Made by a program: the position numbers and the translations under genes
Notes under the pieces: model-generated
The model's database searches: none
Seen by the model: only the letters and a program-made list of their open reading frames with translations
What the model was told of the DNA's origin: nothing
Source of the DNA: a virus
DNA length: 64,000 nucleotides
IMG/VR virus record: IMGVR_UViG_3300031566_000020
Location: 818 to 64,817 of that record
Reading direction: 5' to 3' (one strand)
Shown here: in pieces, positions 10,445 through 32,310 of the stretch
How positions within the stretch are numbered: the first letter of the stretch is position 1
Layout: every line of letters starts with the position of its first letter

Positions 10445-10778
10445 ATGGAAACAGTTTCAAGATTATATTGCTAGTAGATTACAATGTATTGACCCTAATG
10501 CTAGAAGCACAAAAGGAAGTGGCAACTGTGGTGAATTAGGAGATGTGAATAATAAGTATCTTCTTGTTGAGTGTAAGGATACTGATAAAAAATCTGTTAC
10601 ATTTAAGAAAGATGTTTGGGATAAGCTAAAAGGTGAGCTTCCTTTTCATAGCACAAGAATTCCTATGTATGCTATGCAAGACAAAGACGGAAACAAGTGG
10701 GCGGTAGTAGATTTGGATGATTTTCTGGATATTTTTATTGACCATATATATTATGATGAAGGATGCGGAAATGAGTAA
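10431..10778 (+). CDS. PD-(D/E)XK nuclease, Hjc-like resolvase
   Basis: WKQFQ...TKGSGN...GDV...LLVECK; GGGGAG RBS. Confidence 0.75.
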   Translation: MQSPKWKQFQDYIASRLQCIDPNARSTKGSGNCGELGDVNNKYLLVECKDTDKKSVTFKKDVWDKLKGELPFHSTRIPMYAMQDKDGNKWAVVDLDDFLDIFIDHIYYDEGCGNE

Positions 10779-11439
10779 AAAATTAAAATCTTATAAAAAT
10801 AAGGTTTATAAAACAAGATTTGGGATTGAATTAGAAGCCGAATTTCCTGAAAAAGTTGATATTATGGTCTTGCGTCAGCGTTATAGAAAGCTTTTAAAAA
10901 GCTGGACAGTAACAACAGATACTTCTTTAAACAACGGATTAGAATTTAAGCCAAAAGATATAAACAAACTTAAATTCACAAAAGAAACTCTTGATGAAAT
11001 ATCAGAGATTTTACATATAATTCGTAAAAGAAAAGGTACTTGTTCTTCAGCACAATGTGGATTACATATTCACATTGATATGACATCTTATACAAGCGAA
11101 GAAATTTTAAAAATAATCAAAGAAATGATAGCTAGGCAAAACTATATTGTAGAAAATTTTAATGTATCAGAAGATAGATTAGCAATGTATTGTCAATTAA
11201 TTAAAAAATCTGATTTAAGAAAACTAAAGGCTGAAACACTTGAATCTTTTAGAGCCGGGGATTATATTCCAAACATTAAATATTTAGATTCAAAATATTA
11301 TGTTTTAAATGTAAAAAGTTTGCAAGAATTTAATACAATAGAATTTAGACTTTTCAATGGAACAAAATATATAAGAGATATTAAAAAAATATTAACTTTT
11401 ATTTATGAATTTCTAATTAATGCGTTGGAAAGAGAATGA
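10771..11439 (+). CDS. putative amidoligase (glutamine synthetase-like COOH-NH2 ligase, Amidoligase_2 type)
   Basis: FGIELE, WTVTTDTSL, GLEF, CGLHIHID, KYYVLN, TIEFRLFNGT. Confidence 0.82.
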   Translation: MSKKLKSYKNKVYKTRFGIELEAEFPEKVDIMVLRQRYRKLLKSWTVTTDTSLNNGLEFKPKDINKLKFTKETLDEISEILHIIRKRKGTCSSAQCGLHIHIDMTSYTSEEILKIIKEMIARQNYIVENFNVSEDRLAMYCQLIKKSDLRKLKAETLESFRAGDYIPNIKYLDSKYYVLNVKSLQEFNTIEFRLFNGTKYIRDIKKILTFIYEFLINALERE

Positions 11440-11758: not shown

Positions 11759-12908
11759 AAGTGAAAGAAGAAAAAAATTAGAAGAAACAATGAAAGCTTT
11801 TAATAAAAAACAGAAAGATTCTGTCTTAGATTTTGGTGTTTCTCATGAAGAATCTGAAGTAATTCCTACCGGAATAAAAGCTATTGATGATTTTATTGGT
11901 GGTGGAACAAAGCGTGGAACTTTCTCTATTATCTATGGTGGATATTCTGTTGGTAAATCAACAATTGTTTTACAACAAATTGCCCATGCACAAAAGGAAG
12001 GACAGATTTGTTGCTATATTGATTTAGAACATAGCTTTGAGAAAGAACGTGCTAAAGCTTTAGGAGTTAATTTAGATGAATTAGTATTAGCTGAAAAATG
12101 CCAAAATGCAGAACAGGCACTAGAAATTATTCGTGCATTGTGCAAAGAAAAAGCAGTTGATTATTTCGCCATTGATTCAGTACAGGCTATGTCACCTTTA
12201 AATGAGCAAGAAAATAAAGGAAAAGAAAGACAGCTTGTTGAAAAAGAGATTGCTGAATTGGCAAGAACATTAAGTAAATTCTTTAGAGTAGTTGCACCGG
12301 ATGTATTTAATGCTCAAGCAAGTATTGTAATGATTGGACAGGTTAGAATTCATGGTATTGGAACATTCTTTACAAGAGCAGGGCTTACAGGCGGTGAAGC
12401 ACTTAAACATTGGGCTTCACAGATGATTTTCATGCGTCAAGGACAATCTGCTGATGCTCCTGTAAAAGAGTTTAAGAAATATTTTCTTGATAAAGATGGA
12501 AAATTACGGTACAAAACAGAAAAAGATAAGATTGGCTTTGATTGTGTGCTTAAATTAGAGAAAACAAAATCTTCAAAATCTGCTTCTGAAGGTGAAGATG
12601 TTCATGTTCCTTTTGTTTTTGATTATGGGTTTGTAAACGAAGTTAAGCAAGAAGAAGTTGAAATAAAAATAGAAGGAACACCGGAAGAAAAAGAACAGAT
12701 TGAAAAAGAGTTAAAAGAAAAGGGTATTTTAGAAAAATATTCAACTTCAGAAGAACCAAAATCTGCTTATGACCCATTAAAAGAAGGGTATACACCGCAT
12801 CCTGTTAAAGAAGAAGGGGAAATTAAACCACCGCAAGGTGGAACAGGAGAAACAAAAATAGAAGAACCAAAAAAGAAACGTGGCAGACCAACAAAGGAGA
12901 AGAAATAA
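11751..12908 (+). CDS. recA: RecA/UvsX-like recombinase
   Basis: IPTGIKAIDDFIGGG, YGGYSVGKST Walker A, YIDLEH, AIDSVQA Walker B, IGQVR, GGEALKHWAS; AAGGAG RBS. Confidence 0.92.
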   Translation: MDKSERRKKLEETMKAFNKKQKDSVLDFGVSHEESEVIPTGIKAIDDFIGGGTKRGTFSIIYGGYSVGKSTIVLQQIAHAQKEGQICCYIDLEHSFEKERAKALGVNLDELVLAEKCQNAEQALEIIRALCKEKAVDYFAIDSVQAMSPLNEQENKGKERQLVEKEIAELARTLSKFFRVVAPDVFNAQASIVMIGQVRIHGIGTFFTRAGLTGGEALKHWASQMIFMRQGQSADAPVKEFKKYFLDKDGKLRYKTEKDKIGFDCVLKLEKTKSSKSASEGEDVHVPFVFDYGFVNEVKQEEVEIKIEGTPEEKEQIEKELKEKGILEKYSTSEEPKSAYDPLKEGYTPHPVKEEGEIKPPQGGTGETKIEEPKKKRGRPTKEKK

Positions 12909-13189
12909 TGACATGTAAAAACTGTGAAAAAGAATTGTTAAAAGCACGTTATAAAGAACTTTATAATTATGCTATTTTAGCTTATGATGCAACTGGTAGA
13001 GTAGCAAAAGAGAGATTAGCTGAACTTAAAAAACAAATAGAGGAAGCATAATGAATGGAAAAATAGCTAAAAAGTTAAGAAAAGAAGCAAACAATATGTA
13101 TGATAATGCTCCTGAAAAAGTACAGAAGAAGACATCACGCAGACGCATTTATCAATGGTTGAAAAATCAATTTAAGAAGGGAAAATAAA

Positions 13190-13663
13190 ATGACAAGTAG
13201 AGATGTAAATAAATTAATTAAAGAAGGCGAATCCGGAGTTGAAAAGCTTTATGCATCTCATATGAAGTATTTTAACATTGTGGATACTTGGGCTAAGAGA
13301 TTAACTGAAGGTGATATTCTTGATGAATATGAATTATCACAAGCAATGGAACAGCTTACAGGCTCTTTAATGAAGTTGGGAACTGTGGCTGGTGCATTAG
13401 ACGCTTTAATGGAAGAAATTGAACATGAAGAAGAAGTTACTCAATATAACTCATTTGAGAAATTAAGGGTACAGGATGTTAATGTTGTTAAAGCCAATGC
13501 TAGACACAAGATTGGAAAGATTCGTAAATGGAAATCAGACTTTCAGAACTATTTTAATTCTGCACAGTCAGCAGTTATTACTTCTCAATCAAGATTAAAA
13601 AGATTAACAGTTGAAAAGGGTGCAAAAGGGGTAGATTACTGTGGCGAAACACCAAACACATAA
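13190..13663 (+). CDS. helical protein (possibly UvsY-like recombination mediator)
   Basis: All-helical 157 aa between recA and the polymerase; functional call from position only. Confidence 0.4.
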   Translation: MTSRDVNKLIKEGESGVEKLYASHMKYFNIVDTWAKRLTEGDILDEYELSQAMEQLTGSLMKLGTVAGALDALMEEIEHEEEVTQYNSFEKLRVQDVNVVKANARHKIGKIRKWKSDFQNYFNSAQSAVITSQSRLKRLTVEKGAKGVDYCGETPNT

Positions 13664-21912: not shown

Positions 21913-22055
21913 AAAAGACCACCAAATATAAAAAAAGAATATGGGAAGATAGGTTGCTTTGTGTTGAAACAACAAGCGATATTGTTGAAAGATACTTCAA
22001 AGGAAATTGGGATGTTAAGTTCAGGAATGAGGAGAACGGGGAGGAAACAAAATGA
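21909..22055 (+). CDS. small hypothetical protein (48 aa)
   Basis: Start supplied by repeat copy 5; ATGA overlaps at both ends. Confidence 0.5.
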   Translation: MKKTTKYKKRIWEDRLLCVETTSDIVERYFKGNWDVKFRNEENGEETK

Positions 22056-22669
22056 TTAGTGACCGTTTATGTGTAGAAGAAAGACATTTTAAAATCGCAA
22101 AAGAGATTAGACCATCTATTAAAAAGGATAATATTGTTTTAATTTATGGTACATCAGGAACAGGAAAAAGTGAAGTAGCTGATTGTTTGCAAGGGGAATT
22201 GTTTAATAAAAATATTTCAAGTTTTGTTCTTTCTTTAGATGATTATTATAACACTATTCCAAGTTTAAGAAATACTAATCGTAAAAAGATGGGATTAGAT
22301 TCTGTTGGATTACAAGAGATTGAATGGGAGCATTTAAGTAGAATTTGTGCAGACTTTCAAGAGAAGAAAACAATCTATTTTAAAAGAGTACATAAATTTG
22401 CAGATATTATTGAACATAATTCAATTGATACAGAAGAAGTTGATGTAATTATTATTGAAGGTTTATTTGCTGGTTATATGAAAAATTATGGTTATGGTGA
22501 CTTTGCAGTTTATTTAGATGGTAATCCAGCTCAAACATTAGCCTTTAGGGAAAAAAGGCGAAAAGAAAATCCTAATGATTCTTTTAGACAGAAAGTAGTG
22601 CAGAAAGAATTTAACATCATTTGTCAGTTAAAAAGATACGCTGATAAAATTATACCGTTTGAGGAATAA
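22052..22669 (+). CDS. uridine kinase / phosphoribulokinase-like P-loop kinase
   Basis: IYGTSGTGKS, LSLDDYY, VIIIEGLFA, FAVYLD. Confidence 0.75.
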   Translation: MISDRLCVEERHFKIAKEIRPSIKKDNIVLIYGTSGTGKSEVADCLQGELFNKNISSFVLSLDDYYNTIPSLRNTNRKKMGLDSVGLQEIEWEHLSRICADFQEKKTIYFKRVHKFADIIEHNSIDTEEVDVIIIEGLFAGYMKNYGYGDFAVYLDGNPAQTLAFREKRRKENPNDSFRQKVVQKEFNIICQLKRYADKIIPFEE

Positions 22670-24749: not shown

Positions 24750-25000
24750 TGGAAAAATATTGTAAAAATTGTGGTGAAGAAGTCCAGCAAGAATTATATG
24801 AAACAGGTATTGAAGAATTTTGTCGCTGTCAATGTACTTTAGAACCTGATTTTAATCCAGACTTATGGACAAACAATCTATTGGAAAGAAAACGTAAGAT
24901 AGCAAGGGATTTGAAAGACAGGATGAAAAAAGAATGGACAGGTCTGAATGGACAAGACTACCAAGAACAAACTCCATTAGAAAGTTTTGAAAATGAATAA
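24749..25000 (+). CDS. small Zn-ribbon protein, paralog of 19926-20084
   Basis: CKNCG...YETGIEEFCRCQCTLEPDFNPDLW. Confidence 0.7.
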   Translation: MEKYCKNCGEEVQQELYETGIEEFCRCQCTLEPDFNPDLWTNNLLERKRKIARDLKDRMKKEWTGLNGQDYQEQTPLESFENE

Positions 25001-25808
25001 TCCAATTATAATTTGTGCTTCAGGCAATTCTGTGCCTTTTTTGAATAGCCAATATTATAGAACGCATTGCGGATTACCATCAAAACTTCAATACACAATA
25101 CAGAATAATGTTTCTATTGGATTGAATTGGTTCTTTAAATACGGATGCCGGACAACTTTTACATCTTGGGTAGATTGGCAGTGGTATGTTTGGACAAAAG
25201 AACAAACACAATCTTTACCGCTTATGGTTGGAAATTATGACCAATCTTTAAAAAATCATAATGAAGATTTAACCAATAAGAATACGATTTTGTTGAAAAG
25301 TAGCAACACATATTATGGCAAAGAATCAATCGAAAAGGGAGTATACACAAAGCATTTGGTAGGGATTTGGGCTATGAGCCTTGCAGTTTCTTTGGGGTTT
25401 AAAGAGATATACCTTCTTGGCTATGATTGTTGCGAAGTAAACGGACAAACACATTTTTATCAAGGGGTTATTGATGTAAATCAATCAGTTCCTTTGAAGT
25501 TAAGAGGAAAGGTTGTTGAAAACAGACCTATATTTAGAGGAGTAGGAAAGAAAGAAGATGGGAAATATAAAACCGGAACATATAACCGGAAAGGTAAAGA
25601 TATAAGCGATACATATTTTGATAAGTTCACAACAGAAAAGGATGTCAAAATTTATAATGTATCAGAAGAAAGTATCATAACATCTTTTCCTAAAATTTCA
25701 TATGAAGAATTATATGAAAGAGTTGGCGATATTAAAGTTGATAATGATGCAATTAGGGATAAAATAAAGGAAGCTTTACATGAAAGAGCTTGTGATTGTA
25801 ACCGTTAG
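24993..25808 (+). CDS. MptE-like/DUF115 (Maf- or sialyltransferase-like) glycosyltransferase
   Basis: IICASGNS, IGLN, WVD, AMSLAVSLGFKEIYLLGYDC...THFY, KIYNVSEES...FPKIS. Confidence 0.7.
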   Translation: MNNPIIICASGNSVPFLNSQYYRTHCGLPSKLQYTIQNNVSIGLNWFFKYGCRTTFTSWVDWQWYVWTKEQTQSLPLMVGNYDQSLKNHNEDLTNKNTILLKSSNTYYGKESIEKGVYTKHLVGIWAMSLAVSLGFKEIYLLGYDCCEVNGQTHFYQGVIDVNQSVPLKLRGKVVENRPIFRGVGKKEDGKYKTGTYNRKGKDISDTYFDKFTTEKDVKIYNVSEESIITSFPKISYEELYERVGDIKVDNDAIRDKIKEALHERACDCNR

Positions 25809-26538: not shown

Positions 26539-26718
26539 ATGAATATACTTTTAAGAAAAACATTATTATATCGTGTAATTAATTTAGTTGTTATAGGAAT
26601 GATTGTGTTTCTTATAACAAAAAACGTAGAAGAAGCACTTAAATTGAGTCTTGTGGTTGAAGTAACAAAAACTGTACTCTATCTTGTATACGAATATTTT
26701 TGGGAGCTTTCTCACTAA
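26539..26718 (+). CDS. DUF2061-like small membrane protein (59 aa)
   Basis: Missed by ORF track: MNILLRKTLLYRVINLVVIGMIVFLITKNVEEALKLSLVVEVTKTVLYLVYEYFW (KTxxYR...K..LY..E..W pattern). Confidence 0.65.
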   Translation: MNILLRKTLLYRVINLVVIGMIVFLITKNVEEALKLSLVVEVTKTVLYLVYEYFWELSH

Positions 26719-27434
26719 TGGAACTTAAAAACTTTATAATTTTAGGCAATTCAAAATGCGGTACAACGGGGCTGTATGCAACCATGAGCCAGCATCCTCA
26801 GATTGTTCCAGCAAGAACAAAGGAATTGTATTTTTTTGGTTCACCGAAATACACAAAGGGTGTTAATTGGTACAATAGCCAACTAGGAAAGTGTGATGAA
26901 AATCAAATCACAGGAGAATCTACACCTCCGTATTTTTTCCGAAAAGCATCAGTTCTCCAAATTTATAAATATGATAAAGATTTAAAGTTTATTGTTCTAT
27001 TAAGACATCCTGTGAAAAGAGTTATTTCTCATTATAACCATACGAGTGTACCTGGATATGCTTATCCGTTCTCAAAGTTTTTAGATAAAACATTAAAAAG
27101 GATATATATTGAAGCCCACCCATTTTTAATTTTATACCATGTCATTGGGAAAAGCTGTTACTATCCTATGATAAAATATTGGCTTTCTTATTTTCCAAAG
27201 AGCCAATTCCTGTTTGTTAAAAGCGAAGAGTATTTTACTCAGTCACAGAAGGTGTTAAACGAAATTTATAGGTTCTTAAATATTAGCGAATATGATACAG
27301 AGGTAATCCACGCATTAAAGGGCAAATACAGAGCAACAGTGACCGACGAAGACATCAAGCGATTAGAAGAGTATTATAAACCTTACAACAAACTGTTACC
27401 AGCCTTAATTGGTGAAAAATTTACATGGGAGTAG
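26718..27434 (+). CDS. PAPS-dependent sulfotransferase (heparan sulfate sulfotransferase-like)
   Basis: FIILGNSKCGTTGL (5'-PSB), QHPQI...KELYFF, GESTPPY, IVLLRHPVKRVISHY (3'-PB). Confidence 0.9.
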   Translation: MELKNFIILGNSKCGTTGLYATMSQHPQIVPARTKELYFFGSPKYTKGVNWYNSQLGKCDENQITGESTPPYFFRKASVLQIYKYDKDLKFIVLLRHPVKRVISHYNHTSVPGYAYPFSKFLDKTLKRIYIEAHPFLILYHVIGKSCYYPMIKYWLSYFPKSQFLFVKSEEYFTQSQKVLNEIYRFLNISEYDTEVIHALKGKYRATVTDEDIKRLEEYYKPYNKLLPALIGEKFTWE

Positions 27435-27439
27435 GATAG

Positions 27440-28051
27440 ATGAAAAACTATTTTTCTATAAGAAACGAAGAGCATATTAAGTTACAGTTGGAAGGAATGA
27501 AACAGCTTATCAATTTCTTCAGAACAGAATGCGGTGTCTATGCTTATTTAACCTATGGTTCGTTATTAGGGGCTGTTAGAAACCAAGATGTTATAGGTCA
27601 TGATACTGATTATGATATTGCCTATATGTCTAAATTCTCTGAACCAAAAGATATTCAGGCTGAATGGAGAGAGATATGCTGTAAACTAATTGATAACAAT
27701 ATGTTAGGCAAAATTTGGACTAAGCAAGGCATCTTTATCCATCCAACAAAAGACCAATTAGGTGATTTTTCCGGACAGATGCATGTGCAAACTCCAAATA
27801 GGGTTATTCATATTGATGTGTATACTTCCTTTTGTAAGAATGGAAAATACCATTTGAGTTTTGGAATTCATGGACACTTAAAGAGAAGTGATATTGTTCC
27901 TTTTGGCAAAGTAACATTAAGAGGTATTGACTTTCCAGCACCAAAAAGACCAGAAGCAATATTAAAATTTATGTATGGTAAGGATTGGATGACCCCAAAA
28001 GAAGCATATAAATATCAAGGAAAACGAAAGAAACTTTGGGAGTACAAATGA
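27440..28051 (+). CDS. licD: LicD family phosphotransferase
   Basis: YGSLLGAVRNQDVIGHDTDYDI, IDVY, PAPKRPEAILKFMYGKDW. Confidence 0.9.
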   Translation: MKNYFSIRNEEHIKLQLEGMKQLINFFRTECGVYAYLTYGSLLGAVRNQDVIGHDTDYDIAYMSKFSEPKDIQAEWREICCKLIDNNMLGKIWTKQGIFIHPTKDQLGDFSGQMHVQTPNRVIHIDVYTSFCKNGKYHLSFGIHGHLKRSDIVPFGKVTLRGIDFPAPKRPEAILKFMYGKDWMTPKEAYKYQGKRKKLWEYK

Positions 28052-28455
28052 AAAAAGTAATTACTTTCATGGTTGGAGATTTGTTTCACATAGGACATCT
28101 TAATATGCTTCAGAACGCTAAGAAGCTAGGAGATTATCTTATTGTTGGGATTCCTACATCATGGACTATAAAAGAACATATTAAAGGGAAAACTCCGATT
28201 TTTTCAGCAGAGGAAAGATTACGGATTGTTCAGGCTTTAGAGATTGTAGATTTTGCATTTATTTATACAGACAATGATAGTTTAGATGAATCAATAAGAT
28301 TATTAAAACCGGATATTATTTGCAGAGGAGATGACAACAAAAACTTTTTTGGTAAAAAAGCGTCAGAAGAAATAGGATGTGAGATTGTATATTTTCCATA
28401 TACACAAGGAATTTCATCAACAGAAATTAGGAGAAGATTATGCGAAGAAAATTAA
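28048..28455 (+). CDS. HxGH cytidylyltransferase (TagD / glycerol-3-phosphate CTase-like)
   Basis: GDLFHIGHLNML, LIVGI, EERL, PDII, YTQGISST. Confidence 0.9.
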   Translation: MKKVITFMVGDLFHIGHLNMLQNAKKLGDYLIVGIPTSWTIKEHIKGKTPIFSAEERLRIVQALEIVDFAFIYTDNDSLDESIRLLKPDIICRGDDNKNFFGKKASEEIGCEIVYFPYTQGISSTEIRRRLCEEN

Positions 28456-28631
28456 CAGATGAAGAAGTTTACATGATAGTTCGTGCAGAAGAAGAATGTG
28501 GTATGAACACTTTACTTCAAGAACTGTTTACATCAGAAAATCCTGTAGTTTATTGTGAGATTGATGAGAAGGGGTGTTTCGGAGAGTATACTGTTGAAGA
28601 AAAACATAAGAAAGTTAGGAGTAAAAAATGA
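28440..28631 (+). CDS. hypothetical protein (63 aa)
   Basis: AGGAG RBS; packed. Confidence 0.55.
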   Translation: MRRKLTDEEVYMIVRAEEECGMNTLLQELFTSENPVVYCEIDEKGCFGEYTVEEKHKKVRSKK

Positions 28632-29200
28632 GGGTAATATTTGGTGGAAATTCTGATATAGGAAAAGCGATTGAAGGGGAACATATATCTAGAAAAGATT
28701 GTGATGTAACAAAATTTAATGATGTTCTGCATATTATACAAACTTATAGACCAAATGAGATTGTGGATTGTGCTGGGGTTATTTATCCATCATCAATTTA
28801 CAGTTCAGATGTTTTAAGTTGGGAGCATGAGTTGAAGGTAAATTTAATAGGTTCTTACTATATTGCAAAGCTAGGTACACTTAATATAAACGCAAAGATT
28901 GTTTTCATTGGGTCTACAAGCGGATTAAGAGGTAGGGGTGATTGGAGTGGGTATTGTGCATCAAAGGCTGGATTAATATCTCTTGTTCAATCAATGGCTG
29001 AAGAAGGATATAATGCATGGGTGGTAAATCCATCAAGAACAGCAACCAAAATGAGAAAAAAGCTTTTTCCGGATGAAGACCAAAACACTTTATTGCAACC
29101 TTCAGATATAGCAAAAGTTGTGCAAGGATGTTTTGACGGTGTTTATAAATCCGGTAGTAGTATTACAGTAAAAAAAGATAAAATAATTGTAGAGGAGTAA
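28628..29200 (+). CDS. SDR oxidoreductase (Bcs1-type ribulose-5-phosphate reductase-like)
   Basis: GGNSDIG, AGV, NLIG, GSTSGLRGR, YCASK, NPSRTATKMRKKLFPDED. Confidence 0.8.
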   Translation: MRVIFGGNSDIGKAIEGEHISRKDCDVTKFNDVLHIIQTYRPNEIVDCAGVIYPSSIYSSDVLSWEHELKVNLIGSYYIAKLGTLNINAKIVFIGSTSGLRGRGDWSGYCASKAGLISLVQSMAEEGYNAWVVNPSRTATKMRKKLFPDEDQNTLLQPSDIAKVVQGCFDGVYKSGSSITVKKDKIIVEE

Positions 29201-29202
29201 TT

Positions 29203-29604
29203 ATGAAACTAAAATTTAAAACAGATGGTATTTTTACAGACATCACCGAAAAATTAAAGCCAACAATTAAAGATGGTATTTTAGTGGTATCAACCCAACA
29301 TACAACATGTATGTTAGCTATTCTTGAAAATGAATCATTGTTAAAGAAAGATATGGAAGGATTTTTAGAAAGAATTGCTCCGGAAAAAGGTGTTTATGCT
29401 CATGATTATATTGAGAAAAGAGATGTTCCTCCGGATGAAAGAATTAACGGTTTTTCTCATATCAGAGCAATGATGTTTCAACCATCATTAACAATTCCTG
29501 TAGAAGATGGCAAACTGGTACTTGGAAAATGGCAAACAGTATTCTTAATTGAATTAGACCCAAAAAGGGAACGAACTCTACATGTTGTCGAAATCGAAAA
29601 ATAA
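29203..29604 (+). CDS. yjbQ: YjbQ/UPF0047 family protein
   Basis: QHTTC, ENE...D, YAHD, NGFSHIRA, LVLGKWQTVFLIELD. Confidence 0.9.
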   Translation: MKLKFKTDGIFTDITEKLKPTIKDGILVVSTQHTTCMLAILENESLLKKDMEGFLERIAPEKGVYAHDYIEKRDVPPDERINGFSHIRAMMFQPSLTIPVEDGKLVLGKWQTVFLIELDPKRERTLHVVEIEK

Positions 29605-29613
29605 GGATTTATT

Positions 29614-32310
29614 ATGACTGACCAAATGCATCTTTTAAAAAAAGTTACTGATTTGCTTAAAGATAATAATATCGAATATTTCCTTGACTGTGGAACTCTA
29701 CTTGGTGCAGTTAGAGAAGGAGATTTTCTTGCTCATGATGCCAATGATATTGATATTGGATTGAAGCAAGAGGACTATTGGAAAGTAAGAACCATAATAG
29801 ACCGACATTTTGAGTTAGAATATAAAAATTATTGGAGAGCTGAAATTGCAGTTACTCTTGATAATAAATGCCATCTAGATATGTTTTTCTATACAGATGA
29901 AGGGAAATATCTAGCAACTCAAGCATGTTTAGGTAACCCAATGCAAAGAGGGATTAATATAGAATCTGAAACACGAAGATTAAAAGAGAATATTTTTCCT
30001 TTGAAAACAATCAAAATGAAAAGAAAAACTTTCTTTGTTCCAAATAATCCGGAAGCTGTATTAGAAGAACAATATGGGAAAGAATGGAGAACTCCTGTTA
30101 CAAAATGGTATCATGAATATGGACAGGGCTTAAATCCGGAGCATAGAACCATAGGAATATTAATCACAGCGTTTTTAAGAGATGACAAGCTTTTTAAAGA
30201 AGTAAATTCGATATTACAGTATTGCGATAAAGATGACCTATTCAGAAAATGGATTCGTATTTATATTGCTGACCAAGGAAATCCAGAATGGTCAGAAGAA
30301 AAACAAAGATTCTATGACCAATTAAGAGCAAACGGACATAAGATATTTAAAACACCTTACAATTCCGGGCTATCATACAACAGGAACTTTTTGGTTGAGC
30401 AAAGCAACGAACCATACCTGATGATTATAGATGATGATTTTGAGTTTACCGAAAAAACGGATTTAACTCAAATGATTGAAATTTTAAATCATAGAGAGAA
30501 AAACGGAATTGTTGGTGGAGATATTGATGAAAGACCTCCATATCATGCAAACTTAATGTTTGAAGTTAAGGGTGGAATTAATCATCTTTATAGAATACAA
30601 AAAATGAATCAAGAACAGAATGTTAAGAATTACAAATACTATTATACAGACATTGTGCTTAATTTCTTTTTAGCCAAACGAAAAGTCTTAGAAGATGTTA
30701 AATTAGACAACAATTTAAAATTGGTTGAACATTCTGACCACATGCTCCGTATTAAAAGAGATTCAGATTGGAAAGTGTGCTATTGTCCAGATGTTACATG
30801 TAGACATCAAAGAGGTAGAGATAGTGATGAGTATCGTAATTTCAGGCATAATCATAACTATGTGCAAATGTTTTTAGATAAATGGAATATTAAAGAAGAA
30901 AGAAACGCACACAAAGTATATGTAACTCCAATAAAAGAAATTAAGTGTATTGAAGAAAAACCTGAACATAAAGAAAAAATAAAAGTTGTTCAGATTGCAA
31001 GGATTCCATGTGCCAATAGTGCATATGAAGTGTCAAACCTATTAAATAAGTATTCAGATAAATATGAATCACGTTATATTTTAGGAGCAGAATATAGCCG
31101 AAACAATCAAACTATTCCTTTCAGACAATTTCCTTATGATATCTTATGGAAAGAAAATCAAGAGGAAGCTATTAGACTTATTAAAGAAGCAGATATTATT
31201 CATATTCACCACGATTCATGGGAAGACATAGAACAATATTTTGAAGGAAAGTGTGTTGTAAGTACGTTGTATAATTTAACACAGTCTTTACAGTATAAAG
31301 ATAATAAATTTAATAATGATTATCTTAATAAATTAAAATCTTTTGGACATATAACAGTTGCAGACCAGCCACTTCAAAAAATAATGTTCAGTGATATTTC
31401 AACTGACACTGTTCCATTAGTAAAAATGATGTTTGGGTTAAGAGTTTATGACAACGGAAATAAAAATGTTGTTATAGGCTTTGCTCCAACAAATAAAAGC
31501 CCTATAGGTATAGGAAGTAAAAGATTTGAAGAAGTTATGACTGTGATAAACGGTCTTAAAGAAAAATATGACTTTGAATTTAAATTAATCGAAGGACTTC
31601 CTTATGAAGAAAATTTGGTAGAAAAAGGCAAATGTGACATCATTATTGATGATGTTGATGATAGGTATGAAAAGGCTCACAACACAACTATTGAAGCTGG
31701 AATGCTCAATGCAGTTCCATTGACTAATTATAGTGGAGATTGGTATCCAGCACATAAGACATCAATCATTAACTTACAAGAAACTTTAGAGTTATATTTA
31801 GAGAACCCGGCATTGATAGAAGATTATCGTAAACGGATTTTGGAAAAATGGAGAGCCGAAGTGTATACTCCTCAAAATTTGTTAAAAGAATTTGAAAGAG
31901 TTTATGATAGTTTAACAATAAAGAAATCTATAGAAGAAATAGCAATACCAGATACAAAAGATTTATCAATTAAAGAAGAATTTATTTTACTAGATTCAAT
32001 TTTTGAACAAAATAAAATTGATTATTGTTTAATAAAAACAAGTTGTTTAGATGCAGTAAGGTTTGGAGAACCTCGTTTAACACCAGATACAATACATATA
32101 GCGGTAAAAGATATTGAAAAAGCGTCAGCGATTTATAAAGAATTAAATTTAAAATTAAAGGTTAAGTTTTCTACTAATATGCCACCAAAAATGAAAGAGA
32201 TTGGATTTTTTGGAAGGGCTAGAAAGATTCCATTTCCTGTAATTCCATATCTTCAAAATTTTTATGGATATGGAACAAGGTGGAGAAAGTATGGTATAAC
32301 AGAACAATGA
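29614..32310 (+). CDS. four-domain glyco-enzyme: LicD + GT-A (GT2/GT12-like) + GT-B (GT4-like) + degenerate LicD
   Basis: GTLLGAVREG...DIDI; GLSYNRN...IIDDDFEF...VLNFFLA; IGFAPT...DIIIDDV...TIEAG; C-terminal YCLIKTSCLDAV...PVIPYLQNFYG. Confidence 0.85.
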   Translation: MTDQMHLLKKVTDLLKDNNIEYFLDCGTLLGAVREGDFLAHDANDIDIGLKQEDYWKVRTIIDRHFELEYKNYWRAEIAVTLDNKCHLDMFFYTDEGKYLATQACLGNPMQRGINIESETRRLKENIFPLKTIKMKRKTFFVPNNPEAVLEEQYGKEWRTPVTKWYHEYGQGLNPEHRTIGILITAFLRDDKLFKEVNSILQYCDKDDLFRKWIRIYIADQGNPEWSEEKQRFYDQLRANGHKIFKTPYNSGLSYNRNFLVEQSNEPYLMIIDDDFEFTEKTDLTQMIEILNHREKNGIVGGDIDERPPYHANLMFEVKGGINHLYRIQKMNQEQNVKNYKYYYTDIVLNFFLAKRKVLEDVKLDNNLKLVEHSDHMLRIKRDSDWKVCYCPDVTCRHQRGRDSDEYRNFRHNHNYVQMFLDKWNIKEERNAHKVYVTPIKEIKCIEEKPEHKEKIKVVQIARIPCANSAYEVSNLLNKYSDKYESRYILGAEYSRNNQTIPFRQFPYDILWKENQEEAIRLIKEADIIHIHHDSWEDIEQYFEGKCVVSTLYNLTQSLQYKDNKFNNDYLNKLKSFGHITVADQPLQKIMFSDISTDTVPLVKMMFGLRVYDNGNKNVVIGFAPTNKSPIGIGSKRFEEVMTVINGLKEKYDFEFKLIEGLPYEENLVEKGKCDIIIDDVDDRYEKAHNTTIEAGMLNAVPLTNYSGDWYPAHKTSIINLQETLELYLENPALIEDYRKRILEKWRAEVYTPQNLLKEFERVYDSLTIKKSIEEIAIPDTKDLSIKEEFILLDSIFEQNKIDYCLIKTSCLDAVRFGEPRLTPDTIHIAVKDIEKASAIYKELNLKLKVKFSTNMPPKMKEIGFFGRARKIPFPVIPYLQNFYGYGTRWRKYGITEQ

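Follow-up and report, generated by a model that had tools for sequence, protein, structure and literature searches.

All cytidine diphosphate (CDP)-alditol routes characterised so far use a cytidylyltransferase of the IspD fold, PF01128 (PMC10918830; PMC4873967; bioRxiv 10.64898/2026.05.22.727167). The fold includes human ISPD, which is mutated in dystroglycanopathies, and it serves the ribitol, arabinitol, glucitol, mannitol and methylerythritol CDP routes. Here, a gene module is described from a phage, IMG/VR virus record IMGVR_UViG_3300031566_000020 (68,226 bp, 73% complete), of which positions 818 to 64,817 were analysed as one stretch of 64,000 nucleotides, hereafter the window. The module comprises, on the + strand, genes for a stand-alone LicD protein (27440-28051), a nucleotidyltransferase of the HxGH type (28048-28455), a short-chain dehydrogenase/reductase (SDR, 28628-29200) and a YjbQ/UPF0047 protein (29203-29604). 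Judged by sequence comparison, it is most likely a CDP-alditol-type module with a cytidylyltransferase fold, that of the HxGH enzymes, unlike all known versions.

The reductases that partner the IspD fold are of three kinds: a classical SDR (Bcs1), a medium-chain dehydrogenase (TarJ) and an extended SDR that acts on a CDP-ketose (glucitol, mannitol and arabinitol routes). Reduction before cytidylyl transfer is found in the Bcs1 type only (PMC10918830). The window module resembles Bcs1/Acs1 of Haemophilus influenzae, which combines IspD with a classical SDR, in its classical SDR reductase and in a predicted route from ketopentose 5-phosphate through ribitol 5-phosphate to CDP-ribitol, but its nucleotidyltransferase is a Rossmann-type HxGH protein of PF01467 rather than PF01128, its genes are separate, YjbQ has been added and the whole is encoded by a phage. 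TarI/TarJ of Staphylococcus and Streptococcus and the mammalian ISPD (CRPPA)-fukutin-FKRP system, in which ISPD, FKTN and FKRP make up the CDP-ribitol route (PMC4873967), share with it the logic of a CDP-ribitol donor followed by a phosphotransferase, and the window LicD has a predicted FKRP-like fold. However, TarJ belongs to a different dehydrogenase class, mammals have no dedicated SDR partner, and both TarI and ISPD have the IspD fold from which the window cytidylyltransferase differs. The cassettes for CDP-6-D-glucitol (Campylobacter jejuni HS5.17/HS5.18), CDP-mannitol (Mnp1/Mnp2) and CDP-arabinitol (AbpA/AbpB) are likewise two-gene combinations of cytidylyltransferase and reductase that make a CDP-alditol for surface glycans (PMC10918830), but they join PF01128 to a PF01370 enzyme that reduces the CDP-ketose, whereas the window joins PF01467 to a short classical SDR.

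Two further groups share the nucleotidyltransferase fold rather than the pathway. The glycerol-3-phosphate cytidylyltransferases (GCTs) TagD, TarD and Cps3B have in common with the window enzyme the fold, a length of about 130 amino acids (aa), the HxGH and ISST motifs and a lysine pair at Lys44/Lys46. GCTs that have been characterised share 60-70% identity with TagD and retain the motif RTxGISTT with its essential Arg113 (PMC8262930), while the window enzyme shows about 35% identity in the aligned region, has not kept the RYVDEVI motif and has an obligatory SDR link. Archaeal RibL and the Entamoeba FAD synthase are also small HxGH enzymes that are annotated as cytidylyltransferases and act on a ribityl 5'-phosphate; RibL nucleotidylates FMN, using CTP at 40% of the rate of ATP (PMC11423594). 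Their substrate carries an isoalloxazine ring and their product is a cofactor, and the likeness drawn here is one of chemistry on the fold. By analogy, RibL would provide a chemical precedent on the HxGH fold for the nucleotidylation of an alditol phosphate. No description of an HxGH-type enzyme in a CDP-alditol route, nor of a phage-encoded CDP-ribitol pathway, was found in the literature.

Results

An HxGH enzyme occupies the IspD slot

Related loci (L numbers) were collected by a metagenome scan and by tblastn, and the counts given here cover only loci with downstream DNA. The HxGH gene lies directly upstream of the SDR gene, usually overlapping it, in the window, in two viral loci (L081/L082) and in 18 metagenome loci. 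This arrangement is without exception among members of the HxGH clade at 65% identity or more, with an SDR immediately 3' in 18/18 metagenome loci and in both viral ones, whereas HxGH genes at 61% identity or less are followed by an SDR in 0/5 loci and TagD-like genes in 0/55. In the phylogenetic tree the SDR-linked HxGH enzymes form one clade, so that the 20 loci are for the most part not independent of one another; the sisters of this clade adjoin LicD or glycosyltransferase (GT) genes and have no SDR. The SDR partners, on the other hand, fall into more than one clade. In L102-104 the SDR next to an HxGH enzyme that is 71% identical to that of the window comes from the IspD-linked subgroup, and monophyly of the HxGH-linked SDRs is rejected by the approximately unbiased (AU) test (p = 0.0002), giving at least two SDR lineages. 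Since the partners are polyphyletic, the adjacency of HxGH enzyme and SDR has been kept or rebuilt across an exchange of one of the two. As read from the trees, this favours a functional coupling of the pair over a chance neighbourhood inherited once.

The preliminary description of this DNA had paired the reductase with an HxGH enzyme instead of one of the IspD/TarI fold, and this is borne out: a PF01467 gene sits in the IspD slot, 28048-28455 is the only PF01467 gene in the 68-kb record, and in that record, 73% complete, there is no match to IspD (PF01128), NTP_transf_3 (PF12804) or NTP_transferase (PF00483). The accompanying proposal of a non-orthologous version of the known route is well supported by synteny, with the HxGH gene taking the place of IspD in SDR loci. 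The idea that the HxGH enzyme has displaced IspD is thus supported by comparative genomics, not by chemistry.

The HxGH enzyme has diverged from TagD

The HxGH enzyme has a fold of the TagD/ECT kind (135 aa, ATG at 28048; PF01467, 68 bits). Its HIGH motif, at residues 14-17, is invariant in the clade, and an ISST motif is present. Against NCBIfam it scores 82 bits with rfaE_dom_II (cut-off 181.5) and 70 bits with TagD TIGR01518 (cut-off 165.4), and against the Protein Data Bank (PDB) 73 bits with human ECT and 64 bits with the Bacillus subtilis TagD chain 1coz. The clade consists of about 40 clusters at 67% identity or above, below which identity falls sharply to about 45%, the level of generic TagD-like proteins. 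Near-invariant residues of the TagD-like group have been replaced (F/Y10 by G, D38 by S, E39 by W, Y45 by I and W97 by N) and there is an insertion; the changed positions flank the HxGH and GDD motifs. G10, W39 and N97 occur only in the SDR-linked clade and arise where the SDR link arises. The clade keeps an invariant K46 and has K/R48, both aligned with the TagD QKQKK stretch that holds the phosphate-binding Lys44 and Lys46. On these sequence features the enzyme is not an ordinary TagD.

At the position of the TagD motif RTxGISTT the window enzyme reads PYTQGISST, so that Tyr replaces Arg113. This substitution was considered as a clade-specific mark of specificity and dropped, because the same Tyr is found in metagenomic TagD-like proteins.

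Most relatives carry a second HxGH paralogue near the module, 31-40% identical and on separate long branches of the tree (L100:8541-8933, L101:478-846, L105:533-925, L081:10620-11021 and L109:2013-2423). From its sequence, this paralogue could be the true CDP-glycerol enzyme of those relatives. The phage of the window has lost it and keeps three LicD domains.

The SDR belongs to a family tied to nucleotidyltransferases

The SDR is a short classical enzyme (190 aa; PF00106, 52.9 bits), predicted to reduce a ketose phosphate to an alditol phosphate. It starts with a Gly-rich NAD(P)-binding motif (GGNSDIG, residues 6-12), and its catalytic residues N72, S96, Y109 and K113 are invariant across a distinct family of 175-220 aa which, in a search of 5.8 billion proteins, is nearly all metagenomic. 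The family has a C-terminal block with the consensus GRxDTKMRxxLFPxEDxxTLLxP; the motifs that had been quoted for the window gene, NPSRTATKMRKKLFPDED and GLRGR, are both literally present in 28628-29200. An Arg follows beta-strand 2 (ISRKD), which is typical of NADP-preferring SDRs and may hint at an NADPH-dependent reduction of ribulose-5-phosphate.

The window SDR groups not with generic SDRs but with the reductase halves of Bcs1-architecture proteins, in which IspD and SDR are fused. In a single alignment and tree, the split phage forms, the fused bacterial forms and the form from Yersinia phage YerA41 share the signature PxRxxTxMR...F(P/G)xE(D/E)..LLxP together with SxxGxxGR. The only longer homologue found, the 475-aa IspD-SDR fusion P0121, is 32% identical to the window SDR and shares its motifs. 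The kinship with the reductase half of Bcs1-type enzymes that had been suggested for this gene is upheld in this form, the comparison being with fusions of that architecture. A PDB profile search with the family returned generic FabG-like matches only and no CDP-alditol enzyme.

Gene context points the same way. In nine viral contigs the SDR lies directly 3' of an IspD (PF01128) or NTP_transf_3/NTP_transferase gene (viral loci in the range L084-L093), and in L001, a contig of a Gastranaerophilales metagenome-assembled genome (MAG), the order is IspD-SDR-YjbQ. L001 was the one true member recovered in a scan of genome contigs with the SDR alignment, which used the generic pattern YxASKAG and otherwise returned 79 ordinary SDRs. 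Within the class to which L001 belongs, 5/301 genomes have chromosomal IspD-SDR fusions of about 450 aa (L185:8247-9605, L186:8309-9655, L187:7689-9044, L188:1227-2576 and L189:2843-4204), flanked by a gene for a CDP-alditol phosphotransferase of the TagF type (PF04464, 217 bits) or by a GT8-LicD fusion (PF04991, 130 bits). This gene content suggests ribitol-phosphate polymers in the non-photosynthetic cyanobacterial lineage that holds the Gastranaerophilales MAG. In viral contig L083, a 389-aa protein that joins an NTP-transferase to an RpiB-type sugar-phosphate isomerase (12220-13389), 4 kb downstream of a family SDR, points to pentose phosphates, with the RpiB-type domain scoring below the rpiB equivalog cut-off. 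L083 also carries genes resembling GDP-mannose dehydratase. Because of its gene context, its fusions and the common signature, the family is, as far as sequence comparison can assign it, the reductase of nucleotide-activated alditol synthesis.

LicD proteins are candidate consumers of the CDP-alditol

The stand-alone LicD (203 aa) matches PF04991 with 32.4 bits (cut-off 22.6), over residues 33-61 only, and is the candidate consumer of the CDP-alditol. It contains the motifs GSLLGAVR and DTDYD, and G40, L43, G44, R47, D55, D57, D59, D126 and W183 are invariant in 12 relatives. An AlphaFold 2 model of the protein was obtained with a predicted local distance difference test score (pLDDT) of 89 and a predicted template modelling score (pTM) of 0.87. 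The top PDB matches of this model in Foldseek are all FKRP chains, among them 6kam, a complex with CDP-ribitol (E 7e-10 to 2.5e-9, TMq 0.55-0.58), and the next are other proteins of the nucleotidyltransferase fold (E of 3e-4 or higher). Membership of the fukutin/FKRP superfamily, as first proposed, is therefore confirmed by a PF04991 score above the cut-off, a DxDxD motif and a predicted fold that matches FKRP. LicD-family donors are CDP-choline, CDP-ribitol or CDP-glycerol (PMC8262930).

Wherever a locus has enough DNA, LicD is present, as a gene or as a domain, no more than two genes from the HxGH-SDR-YjbQ trio. In the window an 898-aa fusion (29614-32310, + strand), with an N-terminal LicD domain (PF04991, 33.6 bits, residues 16-71), a GT2 domain (PF00535, 37.1 bits) and further parts, is a candidate second consumer, and homologues at 60-62% identity hold the equivalent position in L099 and L100.

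A YjbQ gene recurs as third member of the unit

The YjbQ/UPF0047 protein (133 aa) scores 109.8 bits with PF01894 and 88.4 bits with TIGR00149 (cut-off 67.75). YjbQ is found 3' of the SDR in the window, in L081/L082, L084, L086 and L001 and in 13 metagenome loci, with HxGH and IspD partners alike (for instance L001:1240-1668, L081:8583-8990, L084:2378-2806 and L086:8513-8941), and in HxGH loci it comes next wherever the contig extends that far. It is not found in the fused bacterial loci or in loci with the other type of NTP-transferase. The preliminary description had called the pathway minimal, which is not the case, since YjbQ is a conserved third member of the unit; three LicD domains, glycosyltransferases and sulfotransferases also belong to the run. 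On this conservation, YjbQ/UPF0047 may be a genuine third enzyme of split CDP-alditol modules. Nine structures of the family have been solved, and each was deposited as a hypothetical or uncharacterised protein.

Gene layout around the module

The G+C content of the window is 31%. Its + strand arm holds genes for a primase, a UvsX-like recombinase and a DNA polymerase, and its - strand arm holds tail and virion genes. The module is at the end of the + strand arm, in a gapless run of genes from a sulfotransferase (26700-27434, + strand; PF00685, 63.1 bits), which marks the upstream edge and is given for context only, through the 898-aa fusion and beyond. The LicD, HxGH and SDR genes were each recovered as originally placed, all on the + strand. 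A 63-aa acidic open reading frame (ORF; 28440-28631, + strand) lies between the HxGH enzyme and the SDR, and the run continues 3' of the 898-aa fusion with another sulfotransferase-like gene, a glycosyltransferase paralogue and a gene for an M50 protease. At 28048 and 28628 the stop codon of one gene overlaps the start codon of the next as ATGA, so these genes are translationally coupled, and there is a 16-nt overlap at 28440. Scans of the region for promoters and terminators were no better than those of shuffled sequence, and operon boundaries therefore rest on gene spacing alone.

Homologues of 60-87% identity recur in unchanged order in about 20 independent contigs, metagenomic or viral, and the module genes are accordingly real genes rather than chance ORFs. 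A blastn search of the region against cultured phages gave no match, nor did a scan of viral contigs with a single protein. A homologue of the sulfotransferase (60-64% identity) lies upstream of LicD in L100 and L101. The 63-aa ORF has no Pfam or NCBIfam match; homologues with 44% identity over 45-48 aa lie between SDR and YjbQ in L097, L098 and L100 (L097:7983-8126, L098:2629-2772 and L100:7959-8093), which by sequence marks it as an ORF that is conserved but changes position.

Discussion

The comparisons presented lean towards a phage module that makes and uses a CDP-activated alditol phosphate by means of an HxGH cytidylyltransferase. In the proposed scheme, which infers the substrates, the nucleotide, the sequence of steps, the acceptor and what YjbQ does, the SDR would reduce a host ketose phosphate (ribulose-5-phosphate or xylulose-5-phosphate) with NADPH to an alditol 5-phosphate. 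The HxGH nucleotidyltransferase would couple this to CTP, having replaced the IspD-fold cytidylyltransferase of characterised CDP-alditol routes. Alditol phosphate would then be moved by the stand-alone LicD, and by the 898-aa fusion through its LicD domain(s), onto a glycan acceptor that the neighbouring glycosyltransferases and sulfotransferases would elaborate, with YjbQ as a possible accessory third component. By analogy the alditol product is most probably CDP-ribitol, although with lower confidence than the use of an HxGH enzyme in a CDP-alditol route; ribitol is the best-supported alditol because the characterised enzyme of this architecture is the CDP-ribitol synthase of H. influenzae.

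Several points weigh against this scheme. The HxGH and SDR clades are known from sequence alone, and the SDR is likened to Bcs1 by way of fusion proteins rather than by direct comparison with the H. influenzae enzyme. The group tested in the AU test was chosen with the tree already in view. Only 73% of the genome is present in the record, and the absent part could hold an IspD gene. The nucleotide is uncertain because the best NCBIfam match is to a heptose-1-phosphate adenylyltransferase domain, and, as fukutin and FKRP accept CDP-glycerol too (PMC8262930), the donor cannot be read from the LicD fold. Furthermore, since the SDR-less sisters of the HxGH clade adjoin LicD, the ancestral job of the lineage was probably CDP-glycerol synthesis or similar, and it is perhaps unchanged.

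In an alternative reading, unlikely overall, the HxGH enzyme would be an ordinary glycerol-3-phosphate cytidylyltransferase that makes CDP-glycerol for LicD, and the SDR-YjbQ pair a separate cassette that landed next to it and serves a host IspD/TarI-type enzyme or an unrelated substrate. Several clade members carry the JGI annotation glycerol-3-phosphate cytidylyltransferase, TagD ranks with the best matches in the PDB and NCBIfam, SDR-less sister genes directly adjoin LicD or GT genes in L113 and L115, and CDP-glycerol can be used by LicD-family enzymes (PMC8262930). However, the TagD score is far under its cut-off, the TagD-like residues D38, E39, Y45 and W97 are replaced and a Tyr stands at the position of GCT Arg113, and in many relatives the separate second HxGH paralogue could supply CDP-glycerol. 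Nor would a landed cassette explain why the SDR is tied to a nucleotidyltransferase everywhere else, or why its adjacency to the HxGH gene outlives a swap of the SDR (AU test). Glycerol-3-phosphate is in any case abundant in any host, and no reductase is needed to provide it.

The order of steps and the identity of the polyol may also differ from the scheme, though this is rather improbable. The cytidylyltransferase would act first on the ketose phosphate and the SDR would then reduce a CDP-ketose, as happens in the CDP-glucitol, CDP-mannitol and CDP-arabinitol routes (PMC10918830; bioRxiv 10.64898/2026.05.22.727167), or the polyol would be arabinitol, xylitol, erythritol or a hexitol. The SDR family does pair with non-IspD NTP-transferases as well, in polysaccharide loci of varied content, and the RpiB/LacAB family, to which the sub-cut-off rpiB match in L083 leads, isomerises other sugar phosphates too. 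But the reductases of the CDP-ketose routes are extended SDRs (PF01370) with a nucleotide-sugar pocket, whereas the window encodes a 190-aa classical SDR; in the characterised IspD-SDR fusion, reduction precedes cytidylyl transfer (Zolli et al. 2001, as cited in PMC10918830); and the fused bacterial relatives adjoin genes for TagF-type teichoic-acid polymerases. It is highly improbable that the HxGH enzyme is instead an adenylyltransferase of the RfaE domain II/RibL type, making an ADP-sugar or ADP-polyol for the glycosyltransferases while LicD uses a host-made CDP donor: rfaE_dom_II is the best NCBIfam score, and EhFADS and RibL are small HxGH enzymes annotated as cytidylyltransferases that can prefer ATP (PMC11423594), but the rfaE_dom_II and TagD scores differ little and are both far under their cut-offs, the run has no GmhA, GmhB or kinase genes of the heptose pathway, and LicD genes flank the HxGH enzyme directly and are translationally coupled to it.

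Should the scheme with an HxGH cytidylyltransferase hold, a second, unrelated fold would do the job of IspD, a clean case of non-orthologous gene displacement. Annotations of phage and metagenome proteins as glycerol-3-phosphate cytidylyltransferase would then hide other specificities, and a small enzyme of 135 aa would become an alternative for making CDP-ribitol, a hard-to-obtain reagent. If YjbQ is the third enzyme, the long-orphan UPF0047 family would gain its first physiological context; many structures of this uncharacterised family have been solved, and the conserved partner gives a testable way into it. Phages would also carry complete donor and transferase modules for polyol-phosphate glycans, which raises the question of what is decorated.

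Among cultured phages, only Yersinia phages YerA41 and GN1 have a relative of the SDR, fused to IspD in a glycan-type cluster. YerA41 gp151 (L176, MW570730.1 93990-95357), annotated as IspD, is an IspD-SDR fusion of Bcs1 architecture that is 31.5% identical to the window SDR; gp151 is fused and of the IspD type, whereas the window SDR is separate and has an HxGH partner. In YerA41 DNA, thymidine is hypermodified with an oligosaccharide-like group of about 1 kDa (PMC9023294; PMC13697223). This keeps open, without supporting it, the idea that such modules decorate phage DNA. The island of CDP-alditol, LicD, glycosyltransferase and sulfotransferase genes, with YjbQ as third enzyme, might decorate the phage's own DNA or virion with a polyol-phosphate rather than the host envelope, a speculative reading to which little probability is given. 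It would fit because YerA41 and GN1 have glycan-like hypermodified thymidine and because the island is without a priming transferase, flippase or polymerase. In the record, from which 27% of the genome is missing, no thymidylate-synthase-like gene for 5-hydroxymethyl-pyrimidine DNA chemistry was found.

Ribitol phosphate was considered as the YerA41 modification and set aside, as the 184 and 346 m/z fragments have no obvious fit, and YerA41 is used here as a lead only. The neighbours of gp151 include KpsC-like transferases, two further SDRs, a carbohydrate esterase and a glycerophosphodiesterase, and dNK and DNA polymerase genes adjoin.

Elsewhere in the window, 24987-25808 encodes a 273-aa protein with a weak MptE-like/DUF115 match (26.5 bits, cut-off 34.6), and in L097-L099 conserved homologues of it (42-54% identity) likewise lie upstream of the module; by this resemblance it may be another transferase of the island. 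The replication arm contains two adjacent genes resembling nucleoside 2-deoxyribosyltransferases, an Amidoligase_2 gene and a P-loop kinase similar to PRK/uridine kinase (1689-2824, 10717-11439 and 22052-22669), gene types that are known from phage nucleotide and DNA-modification systems.

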